In this document: in pieces, positions 7,790 through 47,362 of the stretch
How the letters are laid out: each line of letters begins with the position of its first letter
Position numbering within the stretch: position 1 is the stretch's first letter
Assembly: GCF_030013205.1 (NCBI RefSeq)
Contig: NZ_CP122648.1
Source of the DNA: Escherichia coli
GTDB taxonomy: Bacteria > Pseudomonadota > Gammaproteobacteria > Enterobacterales > Enterobacteriaceae
Strand: one strand, 5' to 3'
DNA: 64,000 nt
Made by a program: the position numbers and the translations under genes
Notes under the pieces: generated by a model
Database searches by the model: none
The model's input: the letters and a program-made list of their open reading frames with translations, nothing else
What the model was told of the DNA's origin: nothing

Positions 7790-9010
7790 TTACCTGAAGC
7801 TGTTTTTTATTGCTTATACATGATCAAATACTCCTTACATAATTAAGGAGAACAAAATGGAACTTAAAAAATTGATGGAACATATTTCTATTATTCCCGA
7901 TTACAGACAAGCCTGGAAAGTGGAACATAAATTATCGGATATTCTATTGTTGACTATTTGTGCCGTTATTTCTGGTGCGGAAGATTGGGAAGATATAGAG
8001 GATTTTGGGGAAACACATCTCGATTTTTTGAAGCAATATGGTGATTTTGAAAATGGTATTCCTGTTCACGATACCATTGCCAGAGTTGTATCCTGTATCA
8101 GTCCTGCAAAATTTCACGAGTGCTTTATTAACTGGATGCGTGACTGCCATTCTTCAGATGATAAAGACGTCATTGCAATTGATGGAAAAACGCTCCGGCA
8201 CTCTTATGACAAGAGTCGCCGCAGGGGAGCGATTCATGTCATTAGTGCGTTCTCAACAATGCACAGTCTGGTCATCGGACAGATCAGGACGGATGAGAAA
8301 TCCAATGAGATTACAGCTATCCCAGAACTTCTTAACATGCTGGATATTAAAGGAAAAATCATCACAACTGATGCGATGGGTTGCCAGAAAGATATTGCAG
8401 AGAAGATACAAAAACAGGGAGGTGATTATTTATTCGCGGTAAAAGGAAACCAGGGGCGGCTAAATAAAGCCTTCGAGGAAAAATTTCCGCTGAAAGAATT
8501 AAATAATCCAGAGCATGACAGTTACGCAATGAGTGAAAAGAGTCACGGCAGAGAAGAAATCCGTCTTCACATTGTTTGCGATGTCCCTGATGAACTTATT
8601 GATTTCACGTTTGAATGGAAAGGTCTGAAGAAATTATGCGTGGCAGTCTCCTTTCGGTCAATAATAGCAGAACAAAAGAAAGAGCCAGAAATGACGGTCA
8701 GATATTATATTAGTTCTGCTGATTTAACCGCAGAGAAGTTCGCCACAGCAATCCGAAACCACTGGCACGTGGAGAATAAGCTGCACTGGCGTCTGGACGT
8801 GGTAATGAATGAAGACGACTGCAAAATAAGAAGAGGAAATGCAGCAGAATTATTTTCAGGGATACGGCACATCGCTATTAATATTTTGACGAATGATAAG
8901 GTATTCAAGGCAGGGTTAAGACGTAAGATGCGAAAAGCAGCCATGGACAGAAACTATCTGGCGTCAGTCCTTGCGGGGAGCGGGCTTTCGTAATCTTGCC
9001 CTGCCTGCTC
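7790..9010. mobile_element. H-repeat (ISAs1-family) element; boundaries approximate
   Basis: Contains the 378-aa H-repeat transposase gene; this type of element is known to accompany Rhs elements. Ends were not mapped. Confidence 0.6.
7857..8993 (+). CDS. ISAs1-family (H-repeat-associated) transposase
   Basis: 378-aa ORF with AAGGAG ribosome-binding site; sequence [32 protein letters not shown] matches the YhhI/YdcC H-rpt protein family as I recall it. Confidence 0.85.
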
Positions 9011-9263
9011 ACCTCCTCCAGGCACTTCCACTACATGATGACCTGCTCGGTGCCACCGCTCCTTTTCACTATGACGTTAACCTCCCTGTCCCAGGACACC
9101 ATGCTTTTGTCTACATTCTACGCAAACGGCAACTTTTATAACCAGTGTAAAAATAACGTGCCGCAATAGTCATACCTATTAATGGTAAAAAGCTGTCACA
9201 ATTCATAAAAAACCTTAATATACGCCACCCTAAACATAACCAGCGTTAATGTAAGGTTTTTGT

Positions 9264-11501
9264 GTGGACTGGCTTCTTGATGTTTTTGCTACCTGGCTCT
9301 ACGGCTTAAAAGTAATCGCGATAACGTTAGCGGTCATCATGTTCATCAGCGGGCTGGACGATTTTTTTATTGATGTCGTCTACTGGGTACGCCGCATTAA
9401 ACGCAAGTTGAGTGTTTATCGCCGCTACCCGCGAATGAGTTACCGCGAACTGTATAAACCAGATGAAAAACCGTTAGCGATTATGGTTCCGGCGTGGAAT
9501 GAAACGGGCGTCATCGGCAATATGGCCGAGCTGGCGGCGACCACGCTCGACTATGAAAACTATCATATCTTTGTTGGCACCTACCCCAACGACCCCGATA
9601 CTCAGCGTGATGTTGACGAAGTGTGCGCTCGCTTCCCGAATGTGCATAAGGTAGTCTGCGCGCGACCTGGCCCCACCAGCAAAGCCGACTGCCTGAACAA
9701 CGTGCTGGACGCCATCACCCAGTTTGAGCGTAGCGCCAATTTCGCTTTTGCTGGTTTTATTCTGCATGACGCCGAAGATGTGATTTCACCGATGGAATTG
9801 CGTCTGTTCAACTATCTGGTCGAGCGTAAAGATCTGATTCAGATCCCGGTGTATCCGTTCGAACGCGAATGGACGCACTTCACCAGCATGACTTACATTG
9901 ATGAGTTTTCAGAACTGCATGGCAAAGATGTTCCGGTGCGTGAAGCCCTCGCCGGACAAGTGCCCAGCGCAGGCGTCGGTACCTGTTTCAGCCGCCGCGC
10001 CGTGACCGCACTGTTAGCTGACGGTGACGGTATTGCTTTCGACGTGCAGAGTCTTACTGAAGATTACGACATTGGTTTCCGCCTGAAAGAAAAAGGTATG
10101 ACGGAAATTTTTGTCCGTTTTCCGGTGGTGGACGAAGCCAAAGAACGCGAGCAGCGTAAATTTTTACAGCACGCGCGGACGTCAAACATGATCTGCGTGC
10201 GCGAATATTTCCCCGATACCTTTTCGACTGCGGTTCGACAAAAATCTCGCTGGATCATCGGCATTGTTTTCCAGGGCTTTAAAACCCACAAATGGACCTC
10301 CAGCCTGACGCTGAACTACTTTCTCTGGCGCGACCGCAAAGGGGCAATCAGTAACTTTGTCAGCTTCCTCGCGATGCTGGTGATGATCCAGCTTTTGCTG
10401 TTACTGGCGTATGAAAGTTTGTGGCCCGATGCCTGGCATTTCCTTTCTATTTTCAGCGGCAGCGCATGGTTAATGACCCTGCTGTGGCTAAACTTTGGTT
10501 TAATGGTTAACCGCATCGTGCAGCGGGTGATTTTTGTCACTGGCTACTACGGTCTGACGCAGGGGCTGCTATCTGTCCTGCGTCTTTTCTGGGGCAACCT
10601 GATTAACTTCATGGCCAACTGGCGCGCGTTAAAACAGGTACTTCAACACGGCGATCCACGTCGCGTCGCGTGGGATAAAACAACGCATGACTTCCCCAGC
10701 GTGACTGGCGATACCCGCTCGTTGCGTCCGTTAGGTCAAATCCTGCTGGAAAATCAGGTCATCACTGAAGAACAACTCGATACAGCACTGCGTAATCGCG
10801 TCGAAGGTCTACGCCTGGGCGGTTCAATGCTGATGCAGGGGCTGATTAGCGCCGAACAGCTGGCACAGGCGCTGGCAGAGCAAAACAGCGTGGCGTGGGA
10901 GTCGATCGACGCCTGGCAGATCCCTTCATCACTGATTGCCGAAATGCCGGCCTCCGTGGCGCTGCATTATGCAGTGCTGCCGCTGCGTCTGGAAAATGAT
11001 GAGTTAATTGTCGGCAGTGAAGATGGTATTGACCCGGTTTCGCTGGCAGCCCTGACGCGTAAAGTCGGACGCAAAGTGCGTTACGTCATTGTTCTGCGGG
11101 GACAAATTGTCACGGGGTTACGCCACTGGTATGCGCGCCGACGCGGTCACGATCCGCGGGCAATGTTGTACAATGCGGTTCAGCATCAGTGGCTCACGGA
11201 ACAGCAGGCCGGTGAAATCTGGCGGCAATATGTGCCGCATCAGTTCCTGTTCGCCGAAATACTGACCACGCTCGGTCATATTAATCGTTCAGCAATTAAC
11301 GTGTTGTTATTGCGCCATGAACGTAGTTCTCTGCCGCTCGGCAAGTTTTTGGTCACCGAAGGCGTTATCAGCCAGGAAACGTTGGATCGCGTCCTGACAA
11401 TTCAACGCGAATTACAAGTTTCGATGCAATCACTATTACTCAAAGCAGGTTTAAACACAGAACAGGTTGCGCAACTGGAGTCCGAAAATGAAGGAGAATA
11501 A
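9264..11501 (+). CDS. nfrB: Bacteriophage N4 adsorption protein B (inner-membrane glycosyltransferase family 2)
   Basis: 745-aa ORF with GTG start, N-terminal TM helices; length and neighbourhood (nfrA immediately downstream) match K-12 NfrB. Confidence 0.85.
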   Translation: MDWLLDVFATWLYGLKVIAITLAVIMFISGLDDFFIDVVYWVRRIKRKLSVYRRYPRMSYRELYKPDEKPLAIMVPAWNETGVIGNMAELAATTLDYENYHIFVGTYPNDPDTQRDVDEVCARFPNVHKVVCARPGPTSKADCLNNVLDAITQFERSANFAFAGFILHDAEDVISPMELRLFNYLVERKDLIQIPVYPFEREWTHFTSMTYIDEFSELHGKDVPVREALAGQVPSAGVGTCFSRRAVTALLADGDGIAFDVQSLTEDYDIGFRLKEKGMTEIFVRFPVVDEAKEREQRKFLQHARTSNMICVREYFPDTFSTAVRQKSRWIIGIVFQGFKTHKWTSSLTLNYFLWRDRKGAISNFVSFLAMLVMIQLLLLLAYESLWPDAWHFLSIFSGSAWLMTLLWLNFGLMVNRIVQRVIFVTGYYGLTQGLLSVLRLFWGNLINFMANWRALKQVLQHGDPRRVAWDKTTHDFPSVTGDTRSLRPLGQILLENQVITEEQLDTALRNRVEGLRLGGSMLMQGLISAEQLAQALAEQNSVAWESIDAWQIPSSLIAEMPASVALHYAVLPLRLENDELIVGSEDGIDPVSLAALTRKVGRKVRYVIVLRGQIVTGLRHWYARRRGHDPRAMLYNAVQHQWLTEQQAGEIWRQYVPHQFLFAEILTTLGHINRSAINVLLLRHERSSLPLGKFLVTEGVISQETLDRVLTIQRELQVSMQSLLLKAGLNTEQVAQLESENEGE

Positions 11502-15533: not shown

Positions 15534-16295
15534 ATGCAATTGAGCAGCAGTGAACCTTGCGTGGTGATCCTGACCGAAAAAGAGGTAGAGGTAAGCGTCA
15601 ATAACCATGCCACGTTTACCCTTCCGAAAAATTACCTGGCCGCCTTCGCGTGCAACAATAACGTCATTGAACTCTCAACGTTAAATCACGTATTAATCAC
15701 CCACATCAACCGCAACATCATCAACGATTATCTGTTGTTTTTAAATAAGAACTTAACCTGTGTAAAGCCCTGGTCGCGGCTGGCAACCCCGGTTATCGCT
15801 TGTCATAGCCGTACACCGGAAGTGTTCCGGCTAGCCGCCAACCACAGCAAGCAGCAACCCAGCAAACCCTGCGAAGCGGAGTTGACGCGCGCATTGCTTT
15901 TTACCGTATTGTCTAACTTTCTGGAGCAATCGCGGTTTATTGCCCTACTGATGTATATCTTACGCAGCAGCGTCCGCGACAGCGTCTGCCGCATTATTCA
16001 AAGCGATATTCAGCATTACTGGAATCTGCGAATTGTCGCCAGTTCGCTATGTTTAAGCCCCAGCCTGCTCAAAAAGAAATTAAAAAACGAAAATACCAGC
16101 TATAGCCAGATTGTCACAGAGTGTCGTATGCGTTACGCCGTACAGATGTTATTGATGGATAACAAAAATATCACTCAGGTAGCGCAATTATGTGGCTATA
16201 GCAGCACGTCGTACTTTATCTCTGTTTTTAAGGCGTTTTACGGCCTGACACCGTTGAATTATCTCGCCAAACAGCGACAAAAAGTGATGTGGTGA
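15534..16295 (+). CDS. envY: AraC-family transcriptional regulator (porin thermoregulation)
   Basis: 253-aa ORF with C-terminal AraC-type HTH; sits between ybcH and the prophage boundary as in K-12. Confidence 0.75.
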   Translation: MQLSSSEPCVVILTEKEVEVSVNNHATFTLPKNYLAAFACNNNVIELSTLNHVLITHINRNIINDYLLFLNKNLTCVKPWSRLATPVIACHSRTPEVFRLAANHSKQQPSKPCEAELTRALLFTVLSNFLEQSRFIALLMYILRSSVRDSVCRIIQSDIQHYWNLRIVASSLCLSPSLLKKKLKNENTSYSQIVTECRMRYAVQMLLMDNKNITQVAQLCGYSSTSYFISVFKAFYGLTPLNYLAKQRQKVMW

Positions 16296-16340
16296 AGGAC
16301 AAAGCGGAAACGGATAAGACGGGGATAAATGAAGAAGAAA

Positions 16341-16385
16341 TGGCGCGCCCTGCAGGATTCGAACCTGCGGCCCACGACTTAGAAG
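16341..16385. repeat. Direct repeat of the tRNA-Arg 3' end (distal att site of the argU island)
   Basis: 45 nt identical to 26672-26716 (the 3' part of argU). Confidence 0.9.
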
Positions 16386-16808
16386 TTCCTAGAACGACAT
16401 TTTAAGTCAACAACTTACCACGCCATCTCTGCGCTCACACGTCCCACTACCTCAAAACATGTAAAGCCTTGCAAGCCATTGTGAGGCCTTATGTGTCTCA
16501 GTTTTGTCCCTCTTTTTTGTACTAAAAAACATAGTAATTGAGGATAAACCTCATGCTATTTTCGCTTATATGCCTCTAAAGGCATGGCACTTAAATAGAT
16601 AAAAGCACCACAAAAGCATAAAAAAACCACACAGTAAAACCACAATATGAAACAATAACAGATAATTAAACTAAAAACAGATAGCGCATTGTGATAATCA
16701 TTCAATACTAAACAAAATATAAACAGTGGAGCAATATGTAATTGACTCATTAAGTTAGATATAAAAAATACATATTCAATCATTAAAACGATTGAATGGA
16801 GAACTTTT

Positions 16809-17762
16809 ATGCGGGCGAAACTTCTGGGAATAGTCCTGACAACCCCTATTGCGATCAGCTCTTTTGCTTCTACCGAGACTTTATCGTTTACTCCTGACAA
16901 CATAAATGCGGACATTAGTCTTGGAACTCTGAGCGGAAAAACAAAAGAGCGTGTTTATCTAGCCGAAGAAGGAGGCCGAAAAGTCAGTCAACTCGACTGG
17001 AAATTCAATAACGCTGCAATTATTAAAGGTGCAATTAATTGGGATTTGATGCCCCAGATATCTATCGGGGCTGCTGGCTGGACAACTCTCGGCAGCCGAG
17101 GTGGCAATATGGTCGATCAGGACTGGATGGATTCCAGTAACCCCGGAACCTGGACGGATGAAAGTAGACACCCTGATACACAACTCAATTATGCCAACGA
17201 ATTTGATCTGAATATCAAAGGCTGGCTCCTCAACGAACCCAATTACCGCCTGGGACTCATGGCCGGATATCAGGAAAGCCGTTATAGCTTTACAGCCAGA
17301 GGTGGTTCCTATATCTACAGTTCTGAGGAGGGATTCAGAGATGATATCGGCTCCTTCCCGAATGGAGAAAGAGCAATCGGCTACAAACAACGTTTTAAAA
17401 TGCCCTACATTGGCTTGACTGGAAGTTATCGTTATGAAGATTTTGAGCTAGGTGGCACATTTAAATACAGCGGCTGGGTGGAAGCATCTGATAACGATGA
17501 GCACTATGACCCAGGAAAAAGAATCACTTATCGCAGTAAAGTCAAAGACCAAAATTACTATTTTGTTGCAGTCAATGCAGGTTATTACGTAACACCTAAC
17601 GCAAAAGTTTATGTTGAAGGCGCATGGAATCGGGTTACGAATAAAAAAGGTAATACTTCACTTTATGATCACAATGATAACACTTCAGACTACAGCAAAA
17701 ATGGTGCAGGCATAGAAAACTATAACTTCATCACTACTGCTGGTCTTAAGTACATCTTTTAA
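16809..17762 (+). CDS. ompT: Outer-membrane protease VII (omptin)
   Basis: 317-aa ORF with signal peptide and omptin beta-barrel sequence; location inside the argU prophage next to envY as in K-12 DLP12. Confidence 0.9.
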   Translation: MRAKLLGIVLTTPIAISSFASTETLSFTPDNINADISLGTLSGKTKERVYLAEEGGRKVSQLDWKFNNAAIIKGAINWDLMPQISIGAAGWTTLGSRGGNMVDQDWMDSSNPGTWTDESRHPDTQLNYANEFDLNIKGWLLNEPNYRLGLMAGYQESRYSFTARGGSYIYSSEEGFRDDIGSFPNGERAIGYKQRFKMPYIGLTGSYRYEDFELGGTFKYSGWVEASDNDEHYDPGKRITYRSKVKDQNYYFVAVNAGYYVTPNAKVYVEGAWNRVTNKKGNTSLYDHNDNTSDYSKNGAGIENYNFITTAGLKYIF

Positions 17763-17948
17763 CGAAGTTAACCAGATTCTCTCCCCGGTGGTATTGTATA
17801 ACCCCGGGGAATTTGTTTACAGTTACAAGTAGACAATATCCACTAATTTTGTAAGTATTTAACCTATGTCATAACGTGTAATCTCTTGCCGCAACACAAG
17901 ACCTCAATATATTCAAATTTTATCTTTATTCCGATATTCAGAGACACA

Positions 17949-19433
17949 ATGCGAAAAATAATTACTCATTTCAAAGTTGTTTTAACGTTACTTCTACCAG
18001 TAACCGTATCTGCCCAGCAGATACAGTGGCAATCCTGTATGGCCAGTCAATTCAACCACTGGTTTGGTGAGGAAAAACCGTCTCCTGACTTACTATGTGG
18101 TTATTTGTCTGTTCCATTAAAATATACAGACACAGGCGGAGATGCTTCTTATGAAAAAAAATCACAAGTCAAACTAGCGTTGACAAAATTGCCGGCAAAA
18201 AGCAAGCATAAAGGAAGTATCCTGATAATAAGTGGTGGTCCCGGGTTACCAGGCATAAATCCTTATATTAACTTTGACTGGCCAGTCACAAATCTTCGTG
18301 AGTCATGGGATATTATTGGATTTGATCCTCGAGGCGTCGGACAGTCCACTCCGACAATAAACTGCCGGCAATCAGATACAGAGACTCAGGAAAACATAAC
18401 CGAAAAGCAACAAGTATTAAATAAAATTAATGCCTGTATCCATAATACCGGAGCCGAAGTCATTCGCCATATCGGCTCTAACGAGGCTGTGTACGATATT
18501 GATCGTATTAGGCAAGCCTTGGGGGATAAACAACTGACAGCCGTGGCGTATTCGTATGGAACTCAAATTGCAGCCTTATATGCAGAACGTTTTCCCTACA
18601 ACGTAAGATCTATCGTTCTTGATGGAGTCGTCGATATCGATGACCTGGAGGACAACTTCACATGGCAACTCAAACAGGCACAGAGTTATCAGGAAACGTT
18701 TGATCGCTTTGCATCCTGGTGTGCGCGTACAAAAAGTTGCCCGCTTTCTTCAGACAGAGATAAGGCAATAACTCAGTTCCATGAGCTATTATCAAAATTA
18801 CATCACAAACCTTTATTAGACAGTAAGGGAGAAAATATATCTTCAGATGAACTCATATCATTAACAACAGACCTTCTGCTATGGCGTTCATCATGGCCAA
18901 CCCTTGCAACTGCCATACGCCAGTTCTCTCAGGGGATTGTCAGTAATGAAATTGAAACTGCGCTCAGTGCTCCGATAGCCTCAGAAGAGTCAAGCGATGC
19001 TTCGGGGGTAATCCTCTGTGTAGATCAGGGGGATGAGCAATTAACACCAGAAGAGCGAAAATCCCGAAAAGACGCTCTTGCGAATGCCTTCCCGGCTATT
19101 AACTTTGACAATGGACGTTCCGATTCACCTGATTTTTGTGAATTATGGCCAATACATAGCGACCTGAACAAAACTCGCCTGAAAAATATTGTTCTGCCCT
19201 CTGGTTTACTGTTTGTAGCACACAAATACGACCCAACAACGCCCTGGATTAATGCCCGTAAGATGGCAGAGAAATTTTCCAGCCCGTTACTAACAATAAA
19301 TGGTGATGGGCATACATTAGCTCTCACCGGAGTTAATTTATGTGTAGATAAAGCAGTTGTACATCACCTGATCACTCCACAAAAAATAGAAAATATATAC
19401 TGCCCAGGAAATTCTGAAGCAGAAATACAATAA
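17949..19433 (+). CDS. Secreted alpha/beta-hydrolase, S33/TAP-like peptidase family (putative)
   Basis: ATG at 17949 gives MRKIITHFKVVLTLLLPVTVSAQQ (signal peptide); nucleophile elbow VAYSYGTQ; size (~494 aa) and layout resemble proline iminopeptidase / tripeptidyl aminopeptidase-type hydrolases. Confidence 0.6.
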   Translation: MRKIITHFKVVLTLLLPVTVSAQQIQWQSCMASQFNHWFGEEKPSPDLLCGYLSVPLKYTDTGGDASYEKKSQVKLALTKLPAKSKHKGSILIISGGPGLPGINPYINFDWPVTNLRESWDIIGFDPRGVGQSTPTINCRQSDTETQENITEKQQVLNKINACIHNTGAEVIRHIGSNEAVYDIDRIRQALGDKQLTAVAYSYGTQIAALYAERFPYNVRSIVLDGVVDIDDLEDNFTWQLKQAQSYQETFDRFASWCARTKSCPLSSDRDKAITQFHELLSKLHHKPLLDSKGENISSDELISLTTDLLLWRSSWPTLATAIRQFSQGIVSNEIETALSAPIASEESSDASGVILCVDQGDEQLTPEERKSRKDALANAFPAINFDNGRSDSPDFCELWPIHSDLNKTRLKNIVLPSGLLFVAHKYDPTTPWINARKMAEKFSSPLLTINGDGHTLALTGVNLCVDKAVVHHLITPQKIENIYCPGNSEAEIQ

Positions 19434-19455
19434 TTTCAAAATATTCCGCTATTTG

Positions 19456-19495
19456 CTCCCAATGCAAAACATATATTGCATTGGGAGCATATTCA
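19456..19495 (+). terminator. Rho-independent terminator after the hydrolase gene
   Basis: Perfect 12-bp inverted repeat ctcccaatgcaa/ttgcattgggag with 9-nt loop, followed by a T-rich run. Confidence 0.7.
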
Positions 19496-19616
19496 TATTT
19501 TTGTTATTCTTGTATGAAATCGTCTCATGTACACGGTCCTTTTTTCGCCGAAAACTGATATTACTTTAATCAAAAGTTGACGTGCCAGATTCGAAGTAAA
19601 TTTATAAAATATCAAA

Positions 19617-19922
19617 TCAATATACATTTTGCACCTTCGAGATAGTAATGAATGTTACTGTAACATGAGTTACAAACAGCTTCATACCCAGAGCTACTGA
19701 TGTATCAACACGATTCAACAATACCCGATATTTATTCCATGCCTCCAGCAACGATCTTTCTTCCTCCGTTGCGATTTCCAGATCTACAGCATCCTGCAGT
19801 GGCGCAATATACTCACTGAATTCCTGGATGTAGAACTGTGTGGTGACGGTCTTCCAGCCATTCGGCTCCTGCTGTATCGAAGCATACCAGGCTATTTCAA
19901 TATCGCTATGCTGCGGCAGCAT
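19617..19922 (-). CDS. Hypothetical phage protein sharing a ~37-aa segment with the gene remnant at 20700-20867
   Basis: 101-aa ORF; the central segment [34 protein letters not shown] is encoded by one copy of the ~120-bp direct repeat. Confidence 0.4.
19699..19818. repeat. Direct repeat copy A (~120 bp, ~88% identical to copy B)
   Basis: Hand alignment to 20748-20867. Confidence 0.8.
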
Positions 19923-19978
19923 TTAACCCCTTGTAATTCATCGCCATAATTGATTTAATTCACAAATAAAACTATAAC

Positions 19979-20647
19979 ATGGTGAAATTAATGAAAAAAA
20001 ACACAGATGATGGGGCTAAAATTTACACACCACTTACCCTAAAGCTTTATGACTGGTGGGTTTTGGGAGTATCAAATCGGCTTGCATGGGGATGTACTAC
20101 AAAGGAACACCTTCTTCCACACTTTCTGGAACATTTAGGTAACAACCATCTGGATATTGGTGTTGGAACTGGGTTTTACCTTACTCACGTACCTGAGAGT
20201 AGTCTGATATCTTTAATGGATTTGAACGAAGCTAGCCTGAACGCGGCATCTACAAGGGCTGGGGAATCAAAAATTAAACATAAAATTAGCCATGATGTTT
20301 TTGAACCTTATCCCGCGGCGTTACATGGTCAATTTGATTCCATTTCCATGTTTTACCTTCTTCACTGCCTGCCTGGAAATATATCTACAAAAAGCTGTGT
20401 AATACGCAATGCGGCGCAGGCCTTAACTGACGATGGAACTCTATACGGAGCCACAATTCTTGGCGATGGAGTTGTGCACAATAGCTTCGGTCAAAAACTG
20501 ATGCGCATTTACAATCAGAAAGGCATCTTTTCAAACACAAAAGATTCCGAAGAAGGCTTAACACATATACTCTCAGAGCATTTCGAGAATGTTAAAACCA
20601 AGGTTCAAGGTACTGTAGTAATGTTTTCCGCTTCAGGGAAAAAATAG
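19979..20647 (+). CDS. Class I SAM-dependent methyltransferase (putative)
   Basis: 222-aa ORF with Rossmann motif I (LDIGVGTGFY); sits between the two direct repeats, opposite in orientation to neighbouring phage genes. Confidence 0.65.
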   Translation: MVKLMKKNTDDGAKIYTPLTLKLYDWWVLGVSNRLAWGCTTKEHLLPHFLEHLGNNHLDIGVGTGFYLTHVPESSLISLMDLNEASLNAASTRAGESKIKHKISHDVFEPYPAALHGQFDSISMFYLLHCLPGNISTKSCVIRNAAQALTDDGTLYGATILGDGVVHNSFGQKLMRIYNQKGIFSNTKDSEEGLTHILSEHFENVKTKVQGTVVMFSASGKK

Positions 20648-20654
20648 CATCCAA

Positions 20655-20687
20655 CCGCAGCACGTTCTTGCTTAAGACGTGCTGCGG
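20655..20687. terminator. Hairpin (11-bp perfect stem) between the methyltransferase gene and the gene remnant; likely bidirectional terminator
   Basis: ccgcagcacgt / acgtgctgcgg with 11-nt loop; T-run follows on the minus strand. Confidence 0.5.
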
Positions 20688-20747
20688 CATAATCCCAATG
20701 ATTACTCCCTGACAGGGTTCGTAGGCCACTCAATATCAGGTGCAGTT

Positions 20748-20867
20748 GATGTATCAACACGGTTCAGCAACACCCGATACTTTTTCCAGGCTTCCAGCAA
20801 TGAGGTTTCTTCCTCCGTTGCGATTTCCAGATCCACAGCATCCTGAAGTGGCGCAATATGCTCACTG
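20748..20867. repeat. Direct repeat copy B (~120 bp)
   Basis: Hand alignment to 19699-19818. Confidence 0.8.
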
Positions 20868-21104
20868 GCTACCCTGGCGACGCGCCTTACGCGTTAACCA
20901 GCCTTCTGCTTCCAGCCGTGCGATAGCCGTTCTGACGGTACTCATCCCCGCGCCAATCTGGCGTGCAATGGTTTCAATTGATGGCCAGCACACACCTTCG
21001 TCATTACTGAAATCAGCCAGGCGGGCCATAATTGCCACGCTGGATAACTTCATGCCTGACGCAGCGCAACCATCCCATACATAGCCGGTTAATTTAGTGC
21101 TCAT
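20862..21104 (-). pseudogene. Phage HTH protein (replication-initiator-like N-terminus), truncated / frameshifted
   Basis: 80-aa ORF with HTH (SIETIARQIGAGMSTVRTAIARLE); the homologous continuation ([20 protein letters not shown]...) is in another frame immediately downstream. Confidence 0.5.
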
Positions 21105-21113
21105 GACCGACCT

Positions 21114-21452
21114 CTATTTCCCTGAATTTACGACGAAACTGTTCGAGCGGGCTGAAGCACTCATGCTCATAGCCTTCGCGGAGGTAGATAACCCGTTGTG
21201 TTTCCGGCTCCCAACGAATGACTCTGACGGGTACTCCGTAGTGATCTTTGAACCAGCGGTTAACTTGTCGCAAAGGACTGTCTCCTTCTGCCGGTTGAAA
21301 TCACCCACAGCCCACTCTGCAAAGCTGTGGGTTACAATTTCCCTGTCACCTGGTACATTCACTGCATAGCAATATTCCACCTTCGCTTTTCCACCCGGTA
21401 CAGGAAGCGCAATCAGTTGCGAGCGACGGTAGTGTGTTGTTAAACTGTTCAT
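21114..21452 (-). CDS. Hypothetical phage protein
   Basis: 112-aa ORF; ATGA overlap with the upstream CII-like gene suggests translational coupling. Confidence 0.4.
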
Positions 21453-22018
21453 GCGTTAGTTTCTCCACAACCAGAAGCAATCGACGCCACGACGCCCGGA
21501 GCTGCACACTCGCGGGCGTCATTACTTTCTGAAATGCAAAAAATTTTGTAGACAAGTGCTGCATGCTCCTGCAGCTTCGAAATTGAGAGATACAGCTCGT
21601 CGTTAATTGCTGTCTTCTCATGCGGTTCCACTACACCGTCTTCGATTGCTGAACGAATCTGTTTTGAATAACTGCCGATCTGTTCAATGACTTCCAGCAG
21701 ACGCTGGTTAATATCGGCGTTGTCCACATCCTCGACGTCAGGAAGAGACACAAAGACGCCATTTGCAGACTGCGCCACAGCATCAGCAATGAAGTGAGTG
21801 CCACCAGCACGCTGTAAAACCATTGCCCATCCCAGCGGGAAAATCTGATCGCCATCTGCACGAAGGCGGTTGAATAAAGCGTTTTCTGTTACATCGAGCC
21901 AGTCAGCCGCTTCAGCGTAACCACCCGGCAACGCCGCGATAGTTTTTCTGACAGCTTTCACGTACCACTCAGGCTGTTTTTCTATTTTCCAGTGATGCTT
22001 ACCCACGATTAGCCTCAT
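21449..22018 (-). CDS. Phage CII-like / YdaT-family regulatory protein (putative)
   Basis: 189-aa ORF directly downstream of the cro-like gene in the rightward early operon; assignment by position and general resemblance. Confidence 0.45.
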
Positions 22019-22049
22019 CGTTCTGTGGTTAAAAATTGAAAGTGTTCTG

Positions 22050-22274
22050 CTAATCTTTCGGATAGATATCCGGTCTTAAGTCAGATTTCGTAATTGCACC
22101 TGACGTGCATTGCTCAAGTTTTTTAGCCAGCACAAAACTGGCTTTTTTATAGCCATTGAAAACCAGCCGTAAGTAGCCAGGTGTTGAGCCAACTTTTCCG
22201 GCCAACTCGCCCTGCTGTTCTTTGGTTAAAGAGTCCCAATACGCTTTCATACAATATGTACCTCCGATGTACAT
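22050..22274 (-). CDS. Cro-like / YdaS-family HTH regulator
   Basis: Small ORF divergent from the cI-like repressor; likely true start at MKAYWDSL (22250); HTH-like GSTPGYLRLVFNG segment. Confidence 0.6.
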   Translation of the reverse strand: MYIGGTYCMKAYWDSLTKEQQGELAGKVGSTPGYLRLVFNGYKKASFVLAKKLEQCTSGAITKSDLRPDIYPKD

Positions 22275-22325
22275 ATCACATGATTAAAATGAACCTTCAA
22301 GATACTTGTACCTTAACGGTACAAG
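22258..22325. promoter_or_regulatory. Divergent cI/cro control region with palindromic operator-like sites
   Basis: Perfect palindrome cttgtacc-ttaac-ggtacaag (22305-22325) and tgtacc...gtaca (22258-22274) between the divergent repressor genes. Confidence 0.6.
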
Positions 22326-22340
22326 GGTTTTAATTTCGTT

Positions 22341-23015
22341 ATGAAAACAATCCATGACATCCGGCGGTCTAACGCCAGAAAACTGAGAGATGGTGTTGGC
22401 GGGAATTCTTCCTTTGCCACTATGATTGATCGCGAGCCAACCCAGACCAGCAGGTTTATGGGAGATGGTGCTACTAAAAATATCGGTGACAGCATGGCAC
22501 GACACATCGAAAAATGTTTCGACCTGCCTGTCGGATGGCTCGATCAAGAACACCAGACAACGAACATCACAAAAAAACCTGATGTTTCAATCACTAATAA
22601 ACAAATCACATTAGTCCCTGTCATATCATGGGTACAGGCCGGAGCATGGAAAGAAGTTGGATATTCTGAGGTTGATTTGAGCACAGCAGAAACGTATCCC
22701 TGCCCTGTACCCTGTGGGGAAATGACTTATATCCTGCGGGTGATAGGTGATTCAATGATTGATGAGTACCGCCCGGGAGACATGATTTTTGTCGATCCTG
22801 AAGTACCTGCCTGCCACGGTGACGACGTTATTGCATTGATGCACGATACAGGTGAAACCACCTTCAAAAGGTTGATAGAAGATGGGACACAGCGTTATCT
22901 CAAAGCGTTAAACCCAAACTGGCCTGAGCCTTACATTAAGATCAACGGTAATTGCTCTATAATTGGAACTGTGATTTTCTCAGGAAAACCAAGAAGATAC
23001 AAAATCAAAGCCTAA
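22341..23015 (+). CDS. CI-like phage repressor with LexA/S24 autopeptidase domain
   Basis: 224-aa ORF; N-terminal HTH region and C-terminal S24 domain (GDSM..., TFKRL). Confidence 0.8.
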   Translation: MKTIHDIRRSNARKLRDGVGGNSSFATMIDREPTQTSRFMGDGATKNIGDSMARHIEKCFDLPVGWLDQEHQTTNITKKPDVSITNKQITLVPVISWVQAGAWKEVGYSEVDLSTAETYPCPVPCGEMTYILRVIGDSMIDEYRPGDMIFVDPEVPACHGDDVIALMHDTGETTFKRLIEDGTQRYLKALNPNWPEPYIKINGNCSIIGTVIFSGKPRRYKIKA

Positions 23016-23027
23016 TCAATGTTTATG

Positions 23028-23052
23028 AACCTGCTTCGGCAGGTTTTTTTAT
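23028..23052 (+). terminator. Rho-independent terminator after the cI-like gene
   Basis: aacctgc-ttcg-gcaggtt stem-loop followed by ttttttt. Confidence 0.7.
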
Positions 23053-23054
23053 AC

Positions 23055-23082
23055 TTGACAATGTACCTTTGAGATACATAAT
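23055..23082 (+). promoter_or_regulatory. Candidate early-left (pL-like) sigma70 promoter overlapping tgtacc operator half-sites
   Basis: TTGACA (23055-23060), 16-bp spacer, CATAAT (23077-23082); two atgtacc motifs resembling the cI/cro operator half-sites. Confidence 0.5.
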
Positions 23083-23192
23083 GTACCCAAGAGAAACAAC
23101 AAACAGGCAGGACCCCCACGAAGTATCCGCCTGGGGCATATGAAGTTCAGGATGATTCGTTAGCAACAAAAAAGCGCCCTACAGGACGCTTA

Positions 23193-23204
23193 GCTCTTTA
23201 ACAA
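23193..23204 (+). promoter_or_regulatory. boxA-like element (GCTCTTTAACAA)
   Basis: 12-nt match to the rrn boxA consensus (TGCTCTTTAACAA) about 110 nt downstream of the candidate pL-like promoter. Confidence 0.35.
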
Positions 23205-23229
23205 TCTGGATATCCACAACAGTAGTAAT

Positions 23230-23721
23230 CTACAGATTGCCGTTAAGTTTTCTGGACAACTCCTCAATGGATGGAGGCGATACGTAATCCGGATTTTTAT
23301 TCATCAGAAACTTATTTTCACAGTGGAGGCACCTGCTTTTATGAAAAAGCTCATCTTCGCTAACCGGGAATGGTTGAAGTATCGATACTATCTTTTGTCC
23401 AAAACATTTTGGGCAAAGATGCATGGTTATGCTGCCACCGTTCACGATTACCTCCTTCGAGTATACAAAAGTACCCGACTCAAGTTGGTTAAGGATATAG
23501 CCTTCCGTCTGAGCCTCAAAGTTTTCGAATTCTGCAATTTTAGCTTTGAGAGAAGCATTTATTTCTTGATAAGAGCCCACCAGTTCAACGAGAGACACGC
23601 ATTCGCGCTGAATAGACGCAAGCTTTGAGTTCAGCTCACCAATAGCCGCATTTACTTCAGCTTGAGTTTTTGCCTCGTTCATTAGTTTTGCAATCTGGGC
23701 TGTTTCACGAATAGCCGTCAT
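23230..23721 (-). CDS. Hypothetical coiled-coil protein with C-terminal CxxC...HC zinc-ribbon-like motif
   Basis: ORF 23230-24009; the N-terminal 96 codons look like non-coding read-through, so the probable start is MTAIRETAQ (23721); C-terminus has CPKCFGQ...CLHCEN; oriented antisense to the predicted early-left transcript. Confidence 0.5.
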   Translation of the reverse strand: MTAIRETAQIAKLMNEAKTQAEVNAAIGELNSKLASIQRECVSLVELVGSYQEINASLKAKIAEFENFEAQTEGYILNQLESGTFVYSKEVIVNGGSITMHLCPKCFGQKIVSILQPFPVSEDELFHKSRCLHCENKFLMNKNPDYVSPPSIEELSRKLNGNL

Positions 23722-24030
23722 TGCTGCCGTTAATTCAGCGATCACATTGAATACTCTTATTGTTGTTGGGGATATCCAGATTAACCGAATCCTTGTTGTT
23801 GGGGAATAACCAGGTCCACCTCGCCTGATGTGGCTAAAAGCAGGCACATAACAGCTAAGTATTTTCAACCAGAGAGAATCCTTAGCGTTGTGGTGAATGC
23901 GGCTCAGCGCACGCGGGTTAAGGTTGAGGCTGACAGTCGACCTTCTGTGGATACCCACCCGCCTGGTGTGCAACCTTCGCCAGGCACCGGGAGGCACCCG
24001 GCACCACAACTTTATGCTGTGTGTAGTCCT

Positions 24031-24166
24031 GGCGGTACCAGCTTGTACCCTTGCTTCCGGCTGGTACCGTCCTTTTTACAAAACAGAGAAGAGCATCACC
24101 GGACGACGGGCTCATAACCCAATCCATCCGGGCGGCGGCCACCACAGGTGTTCTTCTCTGTTTTGT
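24031..24166 (+). other. Structured GC-rich non-coding segment: terminator-like hairpin plus U-run followed by a long imperfect hairpin (candidate regulatory RNA or leader)
   Basis: 12-bp stem 24031-24042/24060-24071 followed by ttttt (24073-24077); 16-bp stem 24078-24093/24151-24166 enclosing a GC-rich apical region; no credible ORF. Confidence 0.4.
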
Positions 24167-24214
24167 GGAGAAACTAATCGGCCTTGCAGGGTCGATATGA
24201 TGAGGAGCAGCAAA

Positions 24215-24577
24215 ATGGCTAGCGAACGCAGTACTGATGTGCAGGCATTTATCGGGGAGCTGGACGGCGGCGTATTTGAAACCAAAATCGGCGCAGTTCT
24301 CAGTGAAGTCGCTTCCGGTGTGATGAACACGAAAACCAAAGGTAAGGTCTCACTCAACCTGGAAATCGAACCATTTGATGAGAACCGTGTGAAAATCAAA
24401 CACAAACTCTCATATATTCGCCCGACTAACCGCGGGAAAATTTCCGAAGAAGACACCACCGAAACGCCGATGTATGTCAATCGCGGTGGTCGCCTGACTA
24501 TTCTGCAGGAAGACCAGGGACAATTACTGACTCTTGCCGGTGAACCTGACGGAAAACTCCGCGCAGCAGGTCGTTAA
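24215..24577 (+). CDS. YfdP-like phage protein
   Basis: 120-aa product from MASERSTDVQ with GAGGAG ribosome-binding site; matches the size and sequence I recall for K-12 CPS-53 YfdP. Confidence 0.7.
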   Translation: MASERSTDVQAFIGELDGGVFETKIGAVLSEVASGVMNTKTKGKVSLNLEIEPFDENRVKIKHKLSYIRPTNRGKISEEDTTETPMYVNRGGRLTILQEDQGQLLTLAGEPDGKLRAAGR

Positions 24578-24642
24578 TATCGTTCGTAATAAACTGATTA
24601 TTTATCTCATCACTGAATATCTTTATATAGTGAGGACTTATT

Positions 24643-25467
24643 ATGTCTCAGAACTTAGACGCAACCGCAATTAATCAAATCCATGCCCTTATTTCTGCTC
24701 AGGGTGTTAATGAAATTATCAGTAAGATTGGTGCCGATGCTGTGGCATTGCCTGAGAATTTCCGCATTCATGATCTGGAAAAATTTAATTTAAATCGCTT
24801 CCGTTTCCGTGGTGCACTTTCCACTGCCAGCATCGATGATTTTACCCGTTATTCTAAAGATCTTGCAGATGAAGGCACCCGCTGCTTTATCGATGCCGAT
24901 AATATGCGTGCCGTCAGTGTGCTTAACCTGGGTACTATTGATGAGCCAGGTCACGCAGATAACACTGCCACTCTCAAACTGAAAAAGACAGCACCGTTCT
25001 CTGCTCTGTTGTCTGTTAACGGCGAGCGTAACTCCCAGAAGTCACTGGCAGAATGGATCGAAGACTGGGCCGACTACCTTGTGGGCTTTGATGCTAATGG
25101 TGACGCCATTCAAGCAACAAAAGCGGCTGCGGCAGTCCGTAAAATCACGATTGAAGCAAACCAGACCGCTGATTTTGAAGATAATGACTTCAGCGGCAAA
25201 CGCTCCCTGATGGAGTCTGTCGAAGCGAAGACCAAAGACATTATGCCAGTGGCATTTGAATTTAAATGCGTTCCGTTTGAAGGTCTGAAAGAACGTCCGT
25301 TTAAATTACGCCTCAGCATTATCACTGGCGATCGTCCTGTACTGGTTCTGCGCATTATTCAGCTGGAAGCGGTGCAGGAAGAAATGGCTAACGAATTTCG
25401 TGATCTGCTTGTTGAGAAATTCAAAGACAGCAAAGTAGAAACCTTTATTGGTACTTTCACCGCCTGA
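24643..25467 (+). CDS. YfdQ-like phage protein (DUF2303 family)
   Basis: 274-aa ORF, same length as K-12 YfdQ, directly after the yfdP-like gene. Confidence 0.7.
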
Positions 25468-25594
25468 TTTCATTACTGCAAATGCCCCTGCGGGGGCATT
25501 TATGGAAACGTAATTAACTCAATAATCACCGGATGGTGAGGGCTTCCTTTTACCAGAATTCAGCGCGGTGCAGTGCATATACGTGGAGAACAAA

Positions 25595-26656
25595 ATGTCA
25601 TTTATTAAAACTTTTTCCGGGAAGCATTTTTATTATGACAAGATAAATAAAGACGACATCGATATTAACGATATCGCGGTTTCCCTTTCAAATATCTGTC
25701 GCTTTGCCGGTCATCTTTCGCACTTCTACAGCGTCGCCCAACATGCGGTTCTTTGCAGCCAGCTGGTGCCGCAGGAATTTGCTTTTGAAGCGTTAATGCA
25801 TGATGCAACAGAAGCGTATTGCCAGGACATTCCCGCACCACTGAAACGCCTTCTTCCTGACTATAAACGGATGGAAGAAAAAATAGACGCCGTAATCCGT
25901 GAGAAATACGGGTTATCAACTCAGACAAAGGCAAAGCATCTTGCCATGATAAAGGCCATTCTCCGTGCTGCAGAACGCGACTGGAAGTGGCTGGAAAAAG
26001 CGCCTGTCATCAAGATACCAGCGGTCAGAAACAAGCGAGTCAGATGGCTGGAAAAGGAGGAAGCAAAACGCCTTATTGATGAGTGCCCCGAACCACTGAA
26101 ATCTGTCGTCAAGTTTGCGCTGGCAACTGGTCTGAGAAAGTCGAACATCATAAATCTGGAATGGCAACAAATCGACATGCAGCGACGAGTTGCCTGGGTG
26201 AATCCAGAAGAGAGCAAATCAAACCGCGCCATTGGTGTGGCGCTGAACGATACCGCCTGTAAAGTGTTGCGTGATCAAATAGGCAAGCATCACAAATGGG
26301 TGTTTGTACATACCAAGGCGGCTAAGCGAGCAGATGGAACATCAACGCCTGCGGTCAGGAAGATGCGCATCGACAGCAAGACATCATGGCTATCAGCTTG
26401 TCGTCGTGCAGGAATTGAAGATTTCCGTTTCCATGACCTCAGACACACCTGGGCAAGCTGGCTGATCCAGTCAGGCGTCCCATTATCTGTGCTTCAGGAA
26501 ATGGGCGGATGGGAGTCCATAGAAATGGTTCGTAGGTATGCTCACCTTGCGCCTAATCATTTGACAGAGCATGCAAGGAAAATAGACGACATTTTTGGTG
26601 ATAATGTCCCAAATATGTCCCACTGTGGAATTATGGAGGATATAAAGAAGGCGTAA
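25595..26656 (+). CDS. Chimeric ORF: YfdR-like HD-domain N-terminus fused in frame to a tyrosine-integrase catalytic domain (likely inactive integrase remnant)
   Basis: N-terminal ~105 aa [14 protein letters not shown]...[10 protein letters not shown] (HD motif); C-terminal ~240 aa with integrase signature [11 protein letters not shown]...VRRYAHL, ending 16 nt from the tRNA 3' end; the integrase arm/core-binding N-terminus is absent. Confidence 0.7.
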
Positions 26657-26671
26657 CTGATTGAATTGTAA

Positions 26672-26748
26672 TGGCGCGCCCTGCAGGATTCGAACCTGCG
26701 GCCCACGACTTAGAAGGTCGTTGCTCTATCCAACTGAGCTAAGGGCGC
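26672..26748 (-). tRNA. argU: tRNA-Arg (anticodon UCU)
   Basis: 77-nt sequence whose reverse complement is GCGCCCTTAGCTCAGTTGGATAGAGCAACGACCTTCTAAGTCGTGGGCCGCAGGTTCGAATCCTGCAGGGCGCGCCA; cloverleaf and UCU anticodon readable by eye. Confidence 0.93.
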
Positions 26749-26990
26749 GTTGATACCGCAATGCGGTGTAATCGCGTGAATTATACGGTCAACCCTTGCT
26801 GAGTCAATGGCTTTTGATCTGGTTGCTGAACAAGTGAACGACCGCGTCTGATTTTCTGATTTATTTCGCTATAGCGGCAAACAAACGCACATCGCTGCGC
26901 GTCTGAATCAAGAAAACCCGTATTTTCATGTATCAAAGTACAATTTCCCGCCCTAACGGAAAATTGTCCGATCCAATGAGACTGGTAACT

Positions 26991-27623
26991 ATGAAACCAA
27001 CGTCGGTGATCATTATGGATACTCATCCTATCATCAGAATGTCTATTGAAGTTCTGTTGCAAAAAAACAATGAATTGCAAATTGTCCTGAAAACGGATGA
27101 TTATCGCATAACCATCGATTATCTCCGAACCCGTCCTGTTGATTTAATCATTATGGATATAGACTTGCCCGGAACAGACGGTTTTACCTTCCTGAAAAGG
27201 ATCAAACAAATCCAGAGCACAGTGAAAGTATTATTTTTATCATCGAAATCAGAATGCTTTTATGCTGGCAGAGCGATACAAGCTGGTGCTAACGGTTTTG
27301 TCAGTAAATGCAATGATCAAAATGATATTTTTCACGCCGTTCAGATGATCCTCTCCGGATACACTTTTTTCCCCAGCGAAACGCTCAACTATATAAAAAG
27401 CAATAAATGCAGTACGAATAGTTCAACGGTCACGGTGCTATCTAATCGTGAAGTGACCATATTACGTTATCTGGTTAGCGGATTATCCAATAAAGAAATT
27501 GCCGATAAGTTATTACTTAGCAATAAAACAGTTAGTGCGCATAAATCTAATATTTATGGCAAGCTAGGTTTGCATTCAATTGTAGAGCTTATCGACTATG
27601 CCAAATTATATGAATTAATATAA
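26991..27623 (+). CDS. fimZ: LuxR-type response regulator of fimbrial expression
   Basis: 210-aa product from MKPTSVIIMD; receiver domain plus C-terminal LuxR HTH; next to argU and the sfm operon as in K-12. Confidence 0.85.
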   Translation: MKPTSVIIMDTHPIIRMSIEVLLQKNNELQIVLKTDDYRITIDYLRTRPVDLIIMDIDLPGTDGFTFLKRIKQIQSTVKVLFLSSKSECFYAGRAIQAGANGFVSKCNDQNDIFHAVQMILSGYTFFPSETLNYIKSNKCSTNSSTVTVLSNREVTILRYLVSGLSNKEIADKLLLSNKTVSAHKSNIYGKLGLHSIVELIDYAKLYELI

Positions 27624-40076: not shown

Positions 40077-40970
40077 CTACAGCGAAATACAGGTCCCCGC
40101 TTCGCCCGCCAGCGTCTCTTCAATCCGCGATAACGCCCCAATCCACGCAGGTTTGCCACGGCTTCTGACATAGCCACTCACCGCCGTTACCTTCGGCCCC
40201 ATCGAACCATCGGCTTTGGCAAATGGCGCTAACTCATCCGGTGTGGCACGGCGAATGGCGCGTTGCTGCGGCGTTCCCCAGTTTTCATAAACCGCGTCAG
40301 CATCGGTGAGGATCACCAGCCCATCGGCGTTAATCTGCGCAGCGAGCAACGCAGCGGCGAGATCTTTATCAATCACTGCTTCACTCCCTGCCCCGTCTTT
40401 CGTCACAGGCACACCGCCGCCGCCACTGCAAATCACCACATGCCCCTCTTTGAGCAACAACTCAATGGCTTCGCTGTCGAGAATTTTACGCGGTTGCGGA
40501 GACGCCACCACCCGGCGCAAATATTTACCATCACGTTTCATCTGCCAGCCATAAGCCGCTTCCAGTGCCTCTTGTTCTTCTGGCTGATAAACCGGACCGA
40601 TAAACTTCTCTGGCTGCAAAAACGCCGGATCATCAGGCGAAACCTCAATGCGCGTCAGCACCGTCGTGACAGGCGGCATCTGCGGCTGTGCGCTCAAGCT
40701 CTGCGCCAGCATATAGCCAATCATCCCCTGGCTTTCCGCTACCAGCACATCCAGCGGATACGGTTCTACCTCTTTCCACGCCAGATTCTGTAACGCCAGC
40801 AGCCCCACCTGCGGCCCGTTGCCGTGAACAATCGCCAGCCGATAAGAACGGGCCAGGCGCGTCAACGCGGGTACAGCACTGGCAATATTGCGAGATTGAT
40901 TTTCTGCCGTCAGCGCTTCGCCGCGCTGGAGTAAGGCGTTGCCCCCAAGAGCCACAACCAGTGTTTTCAT
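40077..40970 (-). CDS. ybcF: Carbamate kinase-like protein
   Basis: 297-aa [21 protein letters not shown], amino-acid kinase family. Confidence 0.85.
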
Positions 40971-44729: not shown

Positions 44730-45045
44730 AACAACTCCTTAAAAATTGCACCCATGGCAATTGCACGAGCAGTGTTAATGTGGCGATTACGGTATCGATG
44801 ACAACGAGTAAATAAGGTGATGAATATCACACAGGGATTATTAACAAAAGAATTCAAATAACCGCCAGGCTATTACGTGTTATTTTTTAATAAGCGTGGT
44901 TGTTTTAAAAACCAGGTTAAAAGCGAGCGGATTATCAAATAAATTCTAACTATATTTTTTTGCCTGTCTGGATCACATAATCCAGATATTTTCCCTGTAT
45001 GTTAATTGCAGTCATGCTTCACACCGTCGTTAAAAAGGAAGACAG

Positions 45046-46095: not shown

Positions 46096-46116
46096 TTATT
46101 GAGACAGGACTTTCTT

Positions 46117-47352: not shown

Positions 47353-47362
47353 GGAGTTATAA

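Follow-up and report, generated by a model that had tools for sequence, protein, structure and literature searches.

The window, i.e. the entire stretch of DNA that was analyzed, comprises 64,000 nt of the Escherichia coli contig NZ_CP122648.1 (RefSeq assembly GCF_030013205.1), and the subject of this work is a prophage remnant inserted in it at the argU tRNA gene. The window contains one tRNA gene, an intact tRNA-Arg(tct) identified by ARAGORN at 26672–26748 on the minus strand, which corresponds to argU (UCU anticodon). A preliminary description of this DNA, made from the sequence alone, had pointed to a duplication of the 3′ 45 nt of argU (26672–26716) at 16341–16385. Both sequence reading and a repeat search (family D2) recovered this exact repeat, which extends to 47 nt when two flanking bases are included (16339–16385 and 26670–26716; in a 50-nt register the copies are 98% identical). 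An exact repeat of 45–47 nt in 64 kb cannot arise by chance. The two copies enclose 10,284 nt (∼10.3 kb) of prophage DNA, and the second copy is located between envY (15534–16295) and ompT (16809–17762). In E. coli K-12 MG1655, the identical sequence at the identical position forms the right boundary (attR) of the cryptic prophage DLP12, which is annotated at 564755–586056 (21.3 kb, so the estimate that the element is about half the size of DLP12 holds). The 47-bp argU-derived attR of DLP12 has already been described (PMC6379469), and its location at argU goes back to Lindsey et al. 1989, as cited in PMC10057817 and PMC6379469. The argU repeat pair is therefore the attL/attR pair already known for DLP12, with the 3′ 45 nt of argU as attL. 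The element is a DLP12-type lambdoid prophage remnant, a new decay variant of a known family, and the alignments described below indicate that it very probably represents one known phage type reduced by two internal deletions.

The gene order, given throughout in window coordinates, was taken from the RefSeq annotation (Prokaryotic Genome Annotation Pipeline, PGAP) of an identical genome, ETEC4079, and from open reading frame (ORF) and protein-family scans; every ORF of the element could be assigned to phage protein families (PHROGs). The attR copy of the argU 3′ end (16339–16385, no strand) is followed on the plus strand by ompT (16809–17762), the outer-membrane protease gene that forms the right-end cargo of the prophage, and by a gene for a secreted alpha/beta hydrolase (17949–19433, plus strand; phrog_20134). 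Pfam finds in the latter an Abhydrolase_1 domain and a TAP-like C-terminal domain, and its N-terminus is signal-peptide-like (MRKIITHFKVVLTLLLPVTVSA). It was also the sole match in a defense-system search of the element with PADLOC (candidate model C3a206). Next come a tfaX-like fragment of a tail-fiber-assembly gene that lacks its N-terminus (19617–19829, minus strand; annotation and repeat family D1), a class I S-adenosylmethionine-dependent methyltransferase gene (19979–20647, plus strand; phrog_2132), which by alignment corresponds, in intact form, to the K-12 pseudogene ybcY, and the C-terminal 57 codons of a second tfa gene (20702–20873, minus strand). The tfa fragment abuts the N-terminal 78 codons of an O-like replication initiator, which contain its helix-turn-helix (HTH) domain (20874–21104, minus strand).

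The middle part of the element contains an immunity module. On the minus strand it comprises ymfM (21114–21452), encoding a 112-aa homologue of the SOS-inducible division inhibitor of e14 according to the K-12 and PhiR29_1 annotations, ymfL (21449–22006; CII-like regulator family, NF041471, 169.9 bits), and ymfT (22050–22250; Cro-like HTH protein, from annotation and identity with e14). On the plus strand lies ymfK (22341–23015; phrog_4), which encodes a CI-type repressor of the LexA family (S24 autopeptidase) and is labeled ‘cI’ in the PhiR29_1 annotation. The e14 homologue of ymfM reportedly causes SOS-inducible filamentation (bioRxiv 10.1101/2020.11.19.390815). The annotations conflict at 21094–21452: in swine strains PGAP calls a 59-aa DUF4222 ORF in a different frame (21094–21273) instead of ymfM, and each of the two reading frames has its own PHROG family. 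Beyond the repressor are a gene for a 171-aa hypothetical protein (23230–23745, minus strand; phrog_1244), without a match in the K-12 regions compared, a frameshifted hypothetical gene known from annotation (23890–24200, plus strand), and, on the plus strand, yfdP (24215–24577) and yfdQ (DUF2303; 24643–25467), both assigned by annotation, alignment and PHROGs. The last ORF before argU (25595–26656, plus strand) is an in-frame fusion of YfdR residues 1–107 to IntD residues ∼141–387. It retains the IntD catalytic motifs TGLR, HDLRH and RRYAH, and the arm-binding domain is gone. PGAP calls only the integrase part of this ORF, as a pseudogene (25910–26656), and leaves the yfdR part unannotated. 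The genes that the preliminary description had listed (ompT, the secreted hydrolase, the methyltransferase, yfdP, yfdQ, a yfdR fragment and a C-terminal IntD fragment) are thus all present. Its statement that the block begins with the integrase and ends with ompT is correct in the orientation of the prophage; in window coordinates ompT lies at the low end and the integrase fragment at the high end, beside argU.

Measured against the traits of the DLP12 family, the most prevalent prophage family of E. coli (74% of strains; PMC6379469), the element has the integration site in the 3′ end of argU with a tRNA duplication of ∼47 bp, and the ompT and tfa-ybcY-tfa cargo in an att-bounded right end. 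The gene for an IntD-type tyrosine integrase adjoins argU, as in the family, but only its C-terminal ∼246–247 codons are left, fused to yfdR′. The larger of the two deletions eliminated the lambdoid Q, lysis, packaging, head and tail genes, all of which the full-length relative described next still possesses. Their absence identifies a remnant and does not place the element in another family.

This relative is found in strain ECOR29, in which a complete lambdoid prophage of ∼46 kb occupies the interval between the same chromosomal flanks, envY and fimZ. Starting from its right end, the gene order is ompT, hydrolase, tfa′, methyltransferase, tfa, stf, lom, J, tail, head, and terminase genes, followed by nohD, bor, lysis genes, porin, Q, the nin region, rusA, replication genes, ymfL, ymfT, ymfK, yfdP–T, intD and argU. 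The same sequence has been deposited as Escherichia phage PhiR29_1 (PV340556.1, 46,273 bp, host ECOR13) and as PhiR29_2 (PV340557.1, host E. coli C); the GenBank record of PhiR29_1 implies, without proving it, that this is a viable phage. The element is collinear with PhiR29_1 in three consecutive blocks, at 16696–20873 (99.16% identity), 20870–25915 (99.52%) and 25914–26696 (99.75%). With the attR segment, the alignment covers 10,001 of 10,410 nt, and ECOR29 gives equivalent coordinates. PhiR29_1 and PhiR29_2 share with the element the att sites, the cargo, the immunity region and the early-left genes; PhiR29_1 is complete at 46.3 kb, whereas the element is short of 32.8 kb, 1.5 kb and a 1.66-kb segment.

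The first of these gaps, deletion 1, removed 32.8 kb (ECOR29 locus 8002–40844) and joined the C-terminal part of tfa to the N-terminal part of the replication gene; by alignment, its junction lies at 20867–20873 (no strand), with the crossover within TACC at GGT-TA-CCC of the O-like gene. Deletion 2 removed 1,521 bp (ECOR29 locus 45894–47414) and fused yfdR′ in frame to ′intD at 25914/25915. Both junctions show 2–4-nt microhomology and have gene fragments on either side, four fragments in all, which PGAP labels ‘incomplete’. The third difference is an indel: the 1.66-kb segment, which in PhiR29_1 (44393–46048) and the ECOR29 locus (2169–3824) lies between ompT and attR and encodes an acetyltransferase and an XRE/cupin regulator, is absent from both the window and K-12, and at this place the window matches K-12.

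Two observations concern the surroundings of junction 1. The Rfam ‘sRNA’ model IS009 matches 20745–20944 across the junction with 133.7 bits, above the gathering threshold. Its confident alignment is confined to the tfa C-terminal coding sequence, with low posterior probability in the O-fragment part, so the match was not accepted as an sRNA, and the IS009 family may describe coding sequence. The point at which tfaX is truncated lies ∼6–8 nt from the tfa endpoint of deletion 1, at a different nucleotide; since it is a boundary of divergence between tfa alleles, the proximity was treated as coincidence.

The distribution of the element was surveyed in 5426 complete E. coli genomes. An 11-kb query spanning the whole block was found at 99.9–100% identity and full length in 17/5426 genomes, all from swine and including enterotoxigenic E. 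coli (ETEC) and O139:H1 isolates. The junction of deletion 1 and the junction of deletion 2 each occur in 17/5426 genomes, and these are the 17 swine isolates in which the whole block was found; the restriction of both junctions to these genomes indicates one lineage-specific decay history. The recovery of the same 11 kb from 17 independently assembled complete genomes from several laboratories also speaks against an assembly or annotation artifact, an explanation that has nothing specific in its favor and that we regard as practically negligible. In many other genomes the two halves of the block are present with much more DNA between them. Strain PapRG-04-4 carries a different, intermediate decay state of the argU prophage; there, genes for a general-stress protein, two ferritin-like proteins and a manganese catalase lie between the methyltransferase gene and tfa (extracted locus 8153–10366), and an IS100 copy is inserted in the early-left region.

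The comparison with K-12 explains why the element had been described as a mosaic of DLP12- and CPS-53-like genes with additional cargo. DLP12 matches the window at 16000–17762 (envY, attR and ompT; 98.75%), 19693–20873 (tfaX-ybcY-tfaD; 97.9%) and 25914–27000 (the 3′ part of intD and argU; 99.2%), and CPS-53 matches it at 24196–25915 (yfdP, yfdQ and yfdR′; 97.9%). The alignment to these two prophages, proposed as a check, thus gave the expected matches, and in addition e14, which the preliminary description had missed, matches 20871–23164 (an oweE-like fragment, ymfM, ymfL, ymfT and ymfK) at 98.8% and 23816–24204 at 89.5%. No match was found in the K-12 DLP12, CPS-53 and e14 regions for 17763–19692 (hydrolase) and 23165–23815. 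Identities of 97.9–99% to three separate K-12 prophages would be compatible with a hybrid in which a DLP12-type prophage had recombined with one of the CPS-53/KpLE1 type and the cargo absent from K-12 had been newly acquired, and module exchange does occur among lambdoid phages (PMC3945230 and PMC9836094). However, this explanation is contradicted by the collinear alignment to PhiR29_1: a complete phage integrated at the same site, like many other genomes, has these modules in the same uninterrupted order, and therefore any mosaicism predates the element and belongs to the phage family. Moreover, CPS-53 and e14 are themselves remnants with the same modules, and the methyltransferase is ybcY. 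A hybrid origin is consequently improbable. The matches to both prophages thus stand (98–99% for DLP12, 97.9% for CPS-53), but a special mosaic does not, as the end-to-end alignment with a single prophage that would speak against one was obtained in substance, with two clean deletions and one indel as its sole interruptions.

The sequence relationships are better read as showing that the CPS-53 and e14 likeness consists of modules which these K-12 remnants share with the phage family of the element. The CPS-53 likeness is confined to yfdP-yfdQ-yfdR′, and CPS-53/KplE1 is defined by insertion at argW together with IntS and the excisionase TorI, in contrast to the argU site and IntD of the element. 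Similarly, only the immunity module matches e14, and integration at icd with IntE/XisE and the pin-mcrA-lit cargo are not found. Both prophages therefore have modules in common with the element but differ in integrases, attachment sites and leftover gene sets. DLP12, likewise a defective lambdoid remnant, shares with it the integration site, the 47-bp att, the 3′ part of the integrase gene and the right end (ompT and tfaX-ybcY-tfaD). The two remnants have decayed in a different manner: DLP12 retained Q, lysis genes, nohD and the emrE/ybcK/appY cargo and lost the immunity and early-left region, whereas the element retained the latter and lost Q, lysis and packaging genes; in addition, in the element the hydrolase takes the place of appY, ybcY is intact and the integrase is truncated.

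The cargo is not exceptional either. The methyltransferase had been listed as absent from K-12, but it is the intact form of the pseudogene ybcY (19693–20873, 97.9% to DLP12), which rules it out as novel cargo. The hydrolase is indeed missing from K-12 DLP12; the slot between tfaX and ompT (window 17763–19692, K-12 locus 20561–22180) contains the TAP-like hydrolase gene here and in ECOR29, and the regulator gene appY in K-12. Nevertheless, it is not special to the element, as it was found in 1253/5426 complete E. coli genomes (23%) and is also carried by phages PhiR29_1, 2G7b, ev243, PhiR26_1 and PhiR30_1. It is normal cargo of the DLP12-type phage family. Records typed as plasmids match yfdR in 9 places and the hydrolase in 26 places (e.g. 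NZ_CP142787.1, 55.6 kb, strain SX12); such records may represent phage-plasmids, or else prophage contigs that were excised or misassigned.

Several points weigh against derivation from PhiR29_1 by two deletions, or limit it. The 182 nt at 16514–16695 match K-12 and not PhiR29_1; next to attR, the direct ancestor must therefore have differed from PhiR29_1. A literature search found no paper that describes PhiR29, and its viability rests on the GenBank record. The catalytic domain of the integrase persists in an ORF and might conceivably have residual activity, and the loss of excision, like immunity, is predicted from the sequence. We nevertheless consider reduction of a PhiR29_1-like phage to be very probable, and it suggests the following history. 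A lambda-like temperate phage of the DLP12 family, similar to PhiR29_1 and ∼46 kb long, would have entered the 3′ end of argU through site-specific recombination mediated by IntD, duplicating 47 bp of the tRNA gene. In an ancestor of the porcine ETEC/O139:H1 lineage, two illegitimate, microhomology-associated deletions would then have disabled the prophage. Deletion 1 stripped everything from the middle of tfa to codon 79 of the O-like gene, i.e. the tail, head, packaging, lysis, Q and nin genes together with the origin iterons and most replication genes. Deletion 2 took the 3′ half of yfdR together with yfdS, yfdT and the excisionase region, and shortened intD by its first ∼140 codons, at the cost of the arm-binding domain and part of the core-binding domain of the integrase. 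The sequence of these events is our reconstruction.

Lacking Xis and the arm-binding domain of the integrase, the element is predicted to be unable to excise, and lacking an origin and a complete initiator it should be unable to replicate. With no excision, replication, lysis or particles it would be inherited vertically as a fixed chromosomal island. The att repeats, the repressor module and the open integrase-domain ORF could also be expected of a functional small mobile element, a satellite or phage-inducible chromosomal island (PICI), exploiting the argU att site with the aid of a helper phage. However, ∼140 codons are missing from the start of the integrase gene, the rest of which continues a truncated yfdR; neither a replication origin nor genes for an excisionase, a primase or packaging redirection were found in the element, four gene fragments adjoin its junctions, and it is confined to one clonal group. 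The PICI/satellite traits (an intact integrase, an own replication module and helper-exploitation genes) are absent, and nothing satellite-like is among the PHROGs matches. A functional satellite is thus highly improbable, even more so than a hybrid prophage. What survives of the reduced prophage is ompT, the genes for the TAP-like hydrolase and the YbcY methyltransferase, the YmfK, YmfT, YmfL and YmfM immunity module, and yfdP/yfdQ. Their retention may plausibly reflect a benefit from OmpT function and from repressor-mediated immunity to homoimmune phages of the PhiR29 and e14 types.

The one unusual feature of the element is the position of its first deletion. Junction 1 reads ...GGCTACC/CTGGCG... 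(the slash marks the breakpoint), and the intact O-like gene reads ...GCGGTTACC/CTGGCG.... The endpoint in the replication gene is the TA of GGT-TA-CCC, at codon 78/79 of the O-like initiator. The same endpoint was used in the chimeric ymfN (oweE::aaaE) of K-12 e14 and in the PapRG-04-4 remnant. K-12 CPS-53 keeps the opposite side, with the C-terminal part of O (yfdO region) joined 19 nt upstream of yfdP at GGTTA/TGATG. In the extracted loci, the breakpoint is located at 40845–40849 in ECOR29, ∼9401–9404 in e14, 8585/8586 in CPS-53 and 15413 in PapRG-04-4, and further loci with a breakpoint at the site are L015, L035, L076, L079, L132–L136, L248, L249, L252–L254 and L255.

The recurrence was surveyed by pattern scans of IMG/VR and metagenome contigs. 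The 40-nt stretch on the right-hand side of the site was present in 119 loci, of which 114 proved intact. The other 5 carried different partners, each fused precisely at the site; no breaks were observed in the adjacent 40 nt in the same 119 loci. A pattern that excluded the intact allele and left the four junction bases free retrieved 8 viral-contig and 4 metagenome loci, every one with TACC, and with the other flank fixed, a scan returned junctions of the CPS-53 type as well as two more partners, likewise joined at TA. In total, 15 distinct partners at TA keep the N-terminal side and 3 keep the C-terminal side, which corresponds to at least 18 independent rearrangements. The partners that could be mapped (yfdN, KilA-N, DUF968, Rz, capsid E, lom and tfa) lie 1–33 kb downstream on the phage map. 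For CPS-53 and the junctions at which the parental context of the partner was recovered, the microhomology is TA, TAC, TACC, TACCC, TTA or ACC, each compatible with a single crossover at or beside TA. Among the N-side partners, ACC is present at the junction in 15/15 and TACC in 14/15, and 9/15 partners have GG 0–1 nt upstream of their TA (binomial p = 1.4e-5). The site thus fits a palindromic GGNTANCC. The site is 62 nt away from an iteron array with a 15-nt period inside the O-like gene, and one additional iteron core, TTCGACGCAT, lies at a distance of 5 nt.

Several explanations for the recurrence were considered and rejected. A hairpin or cruciform is not supported by the DNA fold z-score of −0.93, which is not significant. 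A secondary integrase site is unlikely, as the breakpoint was used in prophages with IntD, IntE and IntS. It is not a common mosaic boundary either: in 73 loci chosen via yfdR and not via the O site, none (0/73) breaks there, and other recurrent boundaries appear.

Deletion 2 (25914/25915) likewise has its crossover at a TA, here within a yfdR copy of the identical 8-mer GGTTACCC. This 8-mer has 4 copies in the whole of PhiR29_1 (46 kb), and the agreement may be a coincidence (rough odds about 2e-4) or the result of the same process. The 8-mer is probably not a sufficient signal: in IMG/VR, scans at its yfdR copy brought up allelic variants and one single-nucleotide polymorphism but no further junction, and the other GGGTAACC copies (in J and stf) do not coincide with PapRG or K-12 deletion junctions. 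The other deletions of PapRG and K-12 DLP12 have unrelated 2–3-nt microhomologies.

The use of one nucleotide position in independent rearrangements raises the possibility, to which we give a little less than even weight, that GGT-TA-CCC is a nucleotide-precise break, fork-arrest or recombination site that has escaped description and has repeatedly seeded the deletions leading to cryptic remnants, including e14 and CPS-53. A literature search of incomplete coverage found no paper that describes the breakpoint. Specific cleavage or arrest associated with the origin would be one way in which such a site could act, and a staggered site-specific cut is equally possible. The O-type initiator is not known to nick DNA. 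Deletion hot spots with one end fixed at an arrested fork or origin nick (terB and the M13 and pC194 origins) were reportedly characterized by Bierne, Michel and Ehrlich. These hot spots resemble the O-like site in that one end is fixed to the nucleotide and the other is variable, microhomology is 2–5 nt and the location is near an origin. They are associated with an arrest or nick, which at the O-like site would be hypothetical, and at the O-like site either side can be retained.

In itself the remnant matters little, as it is one more lineage-specific decay product of a very common prophage family. It does, however, offer a clean case, as comparison with a complete relative allows the two disabling deletions to be reconstructed, and it illustrates that a K-12-centered reading can take modules common to a single phage family for a mosaic. 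If inactivation is indeed repeatedly triggered at one nucleotide by the origin, the domestication of these prophages would be partly mechanistically directed and not random.

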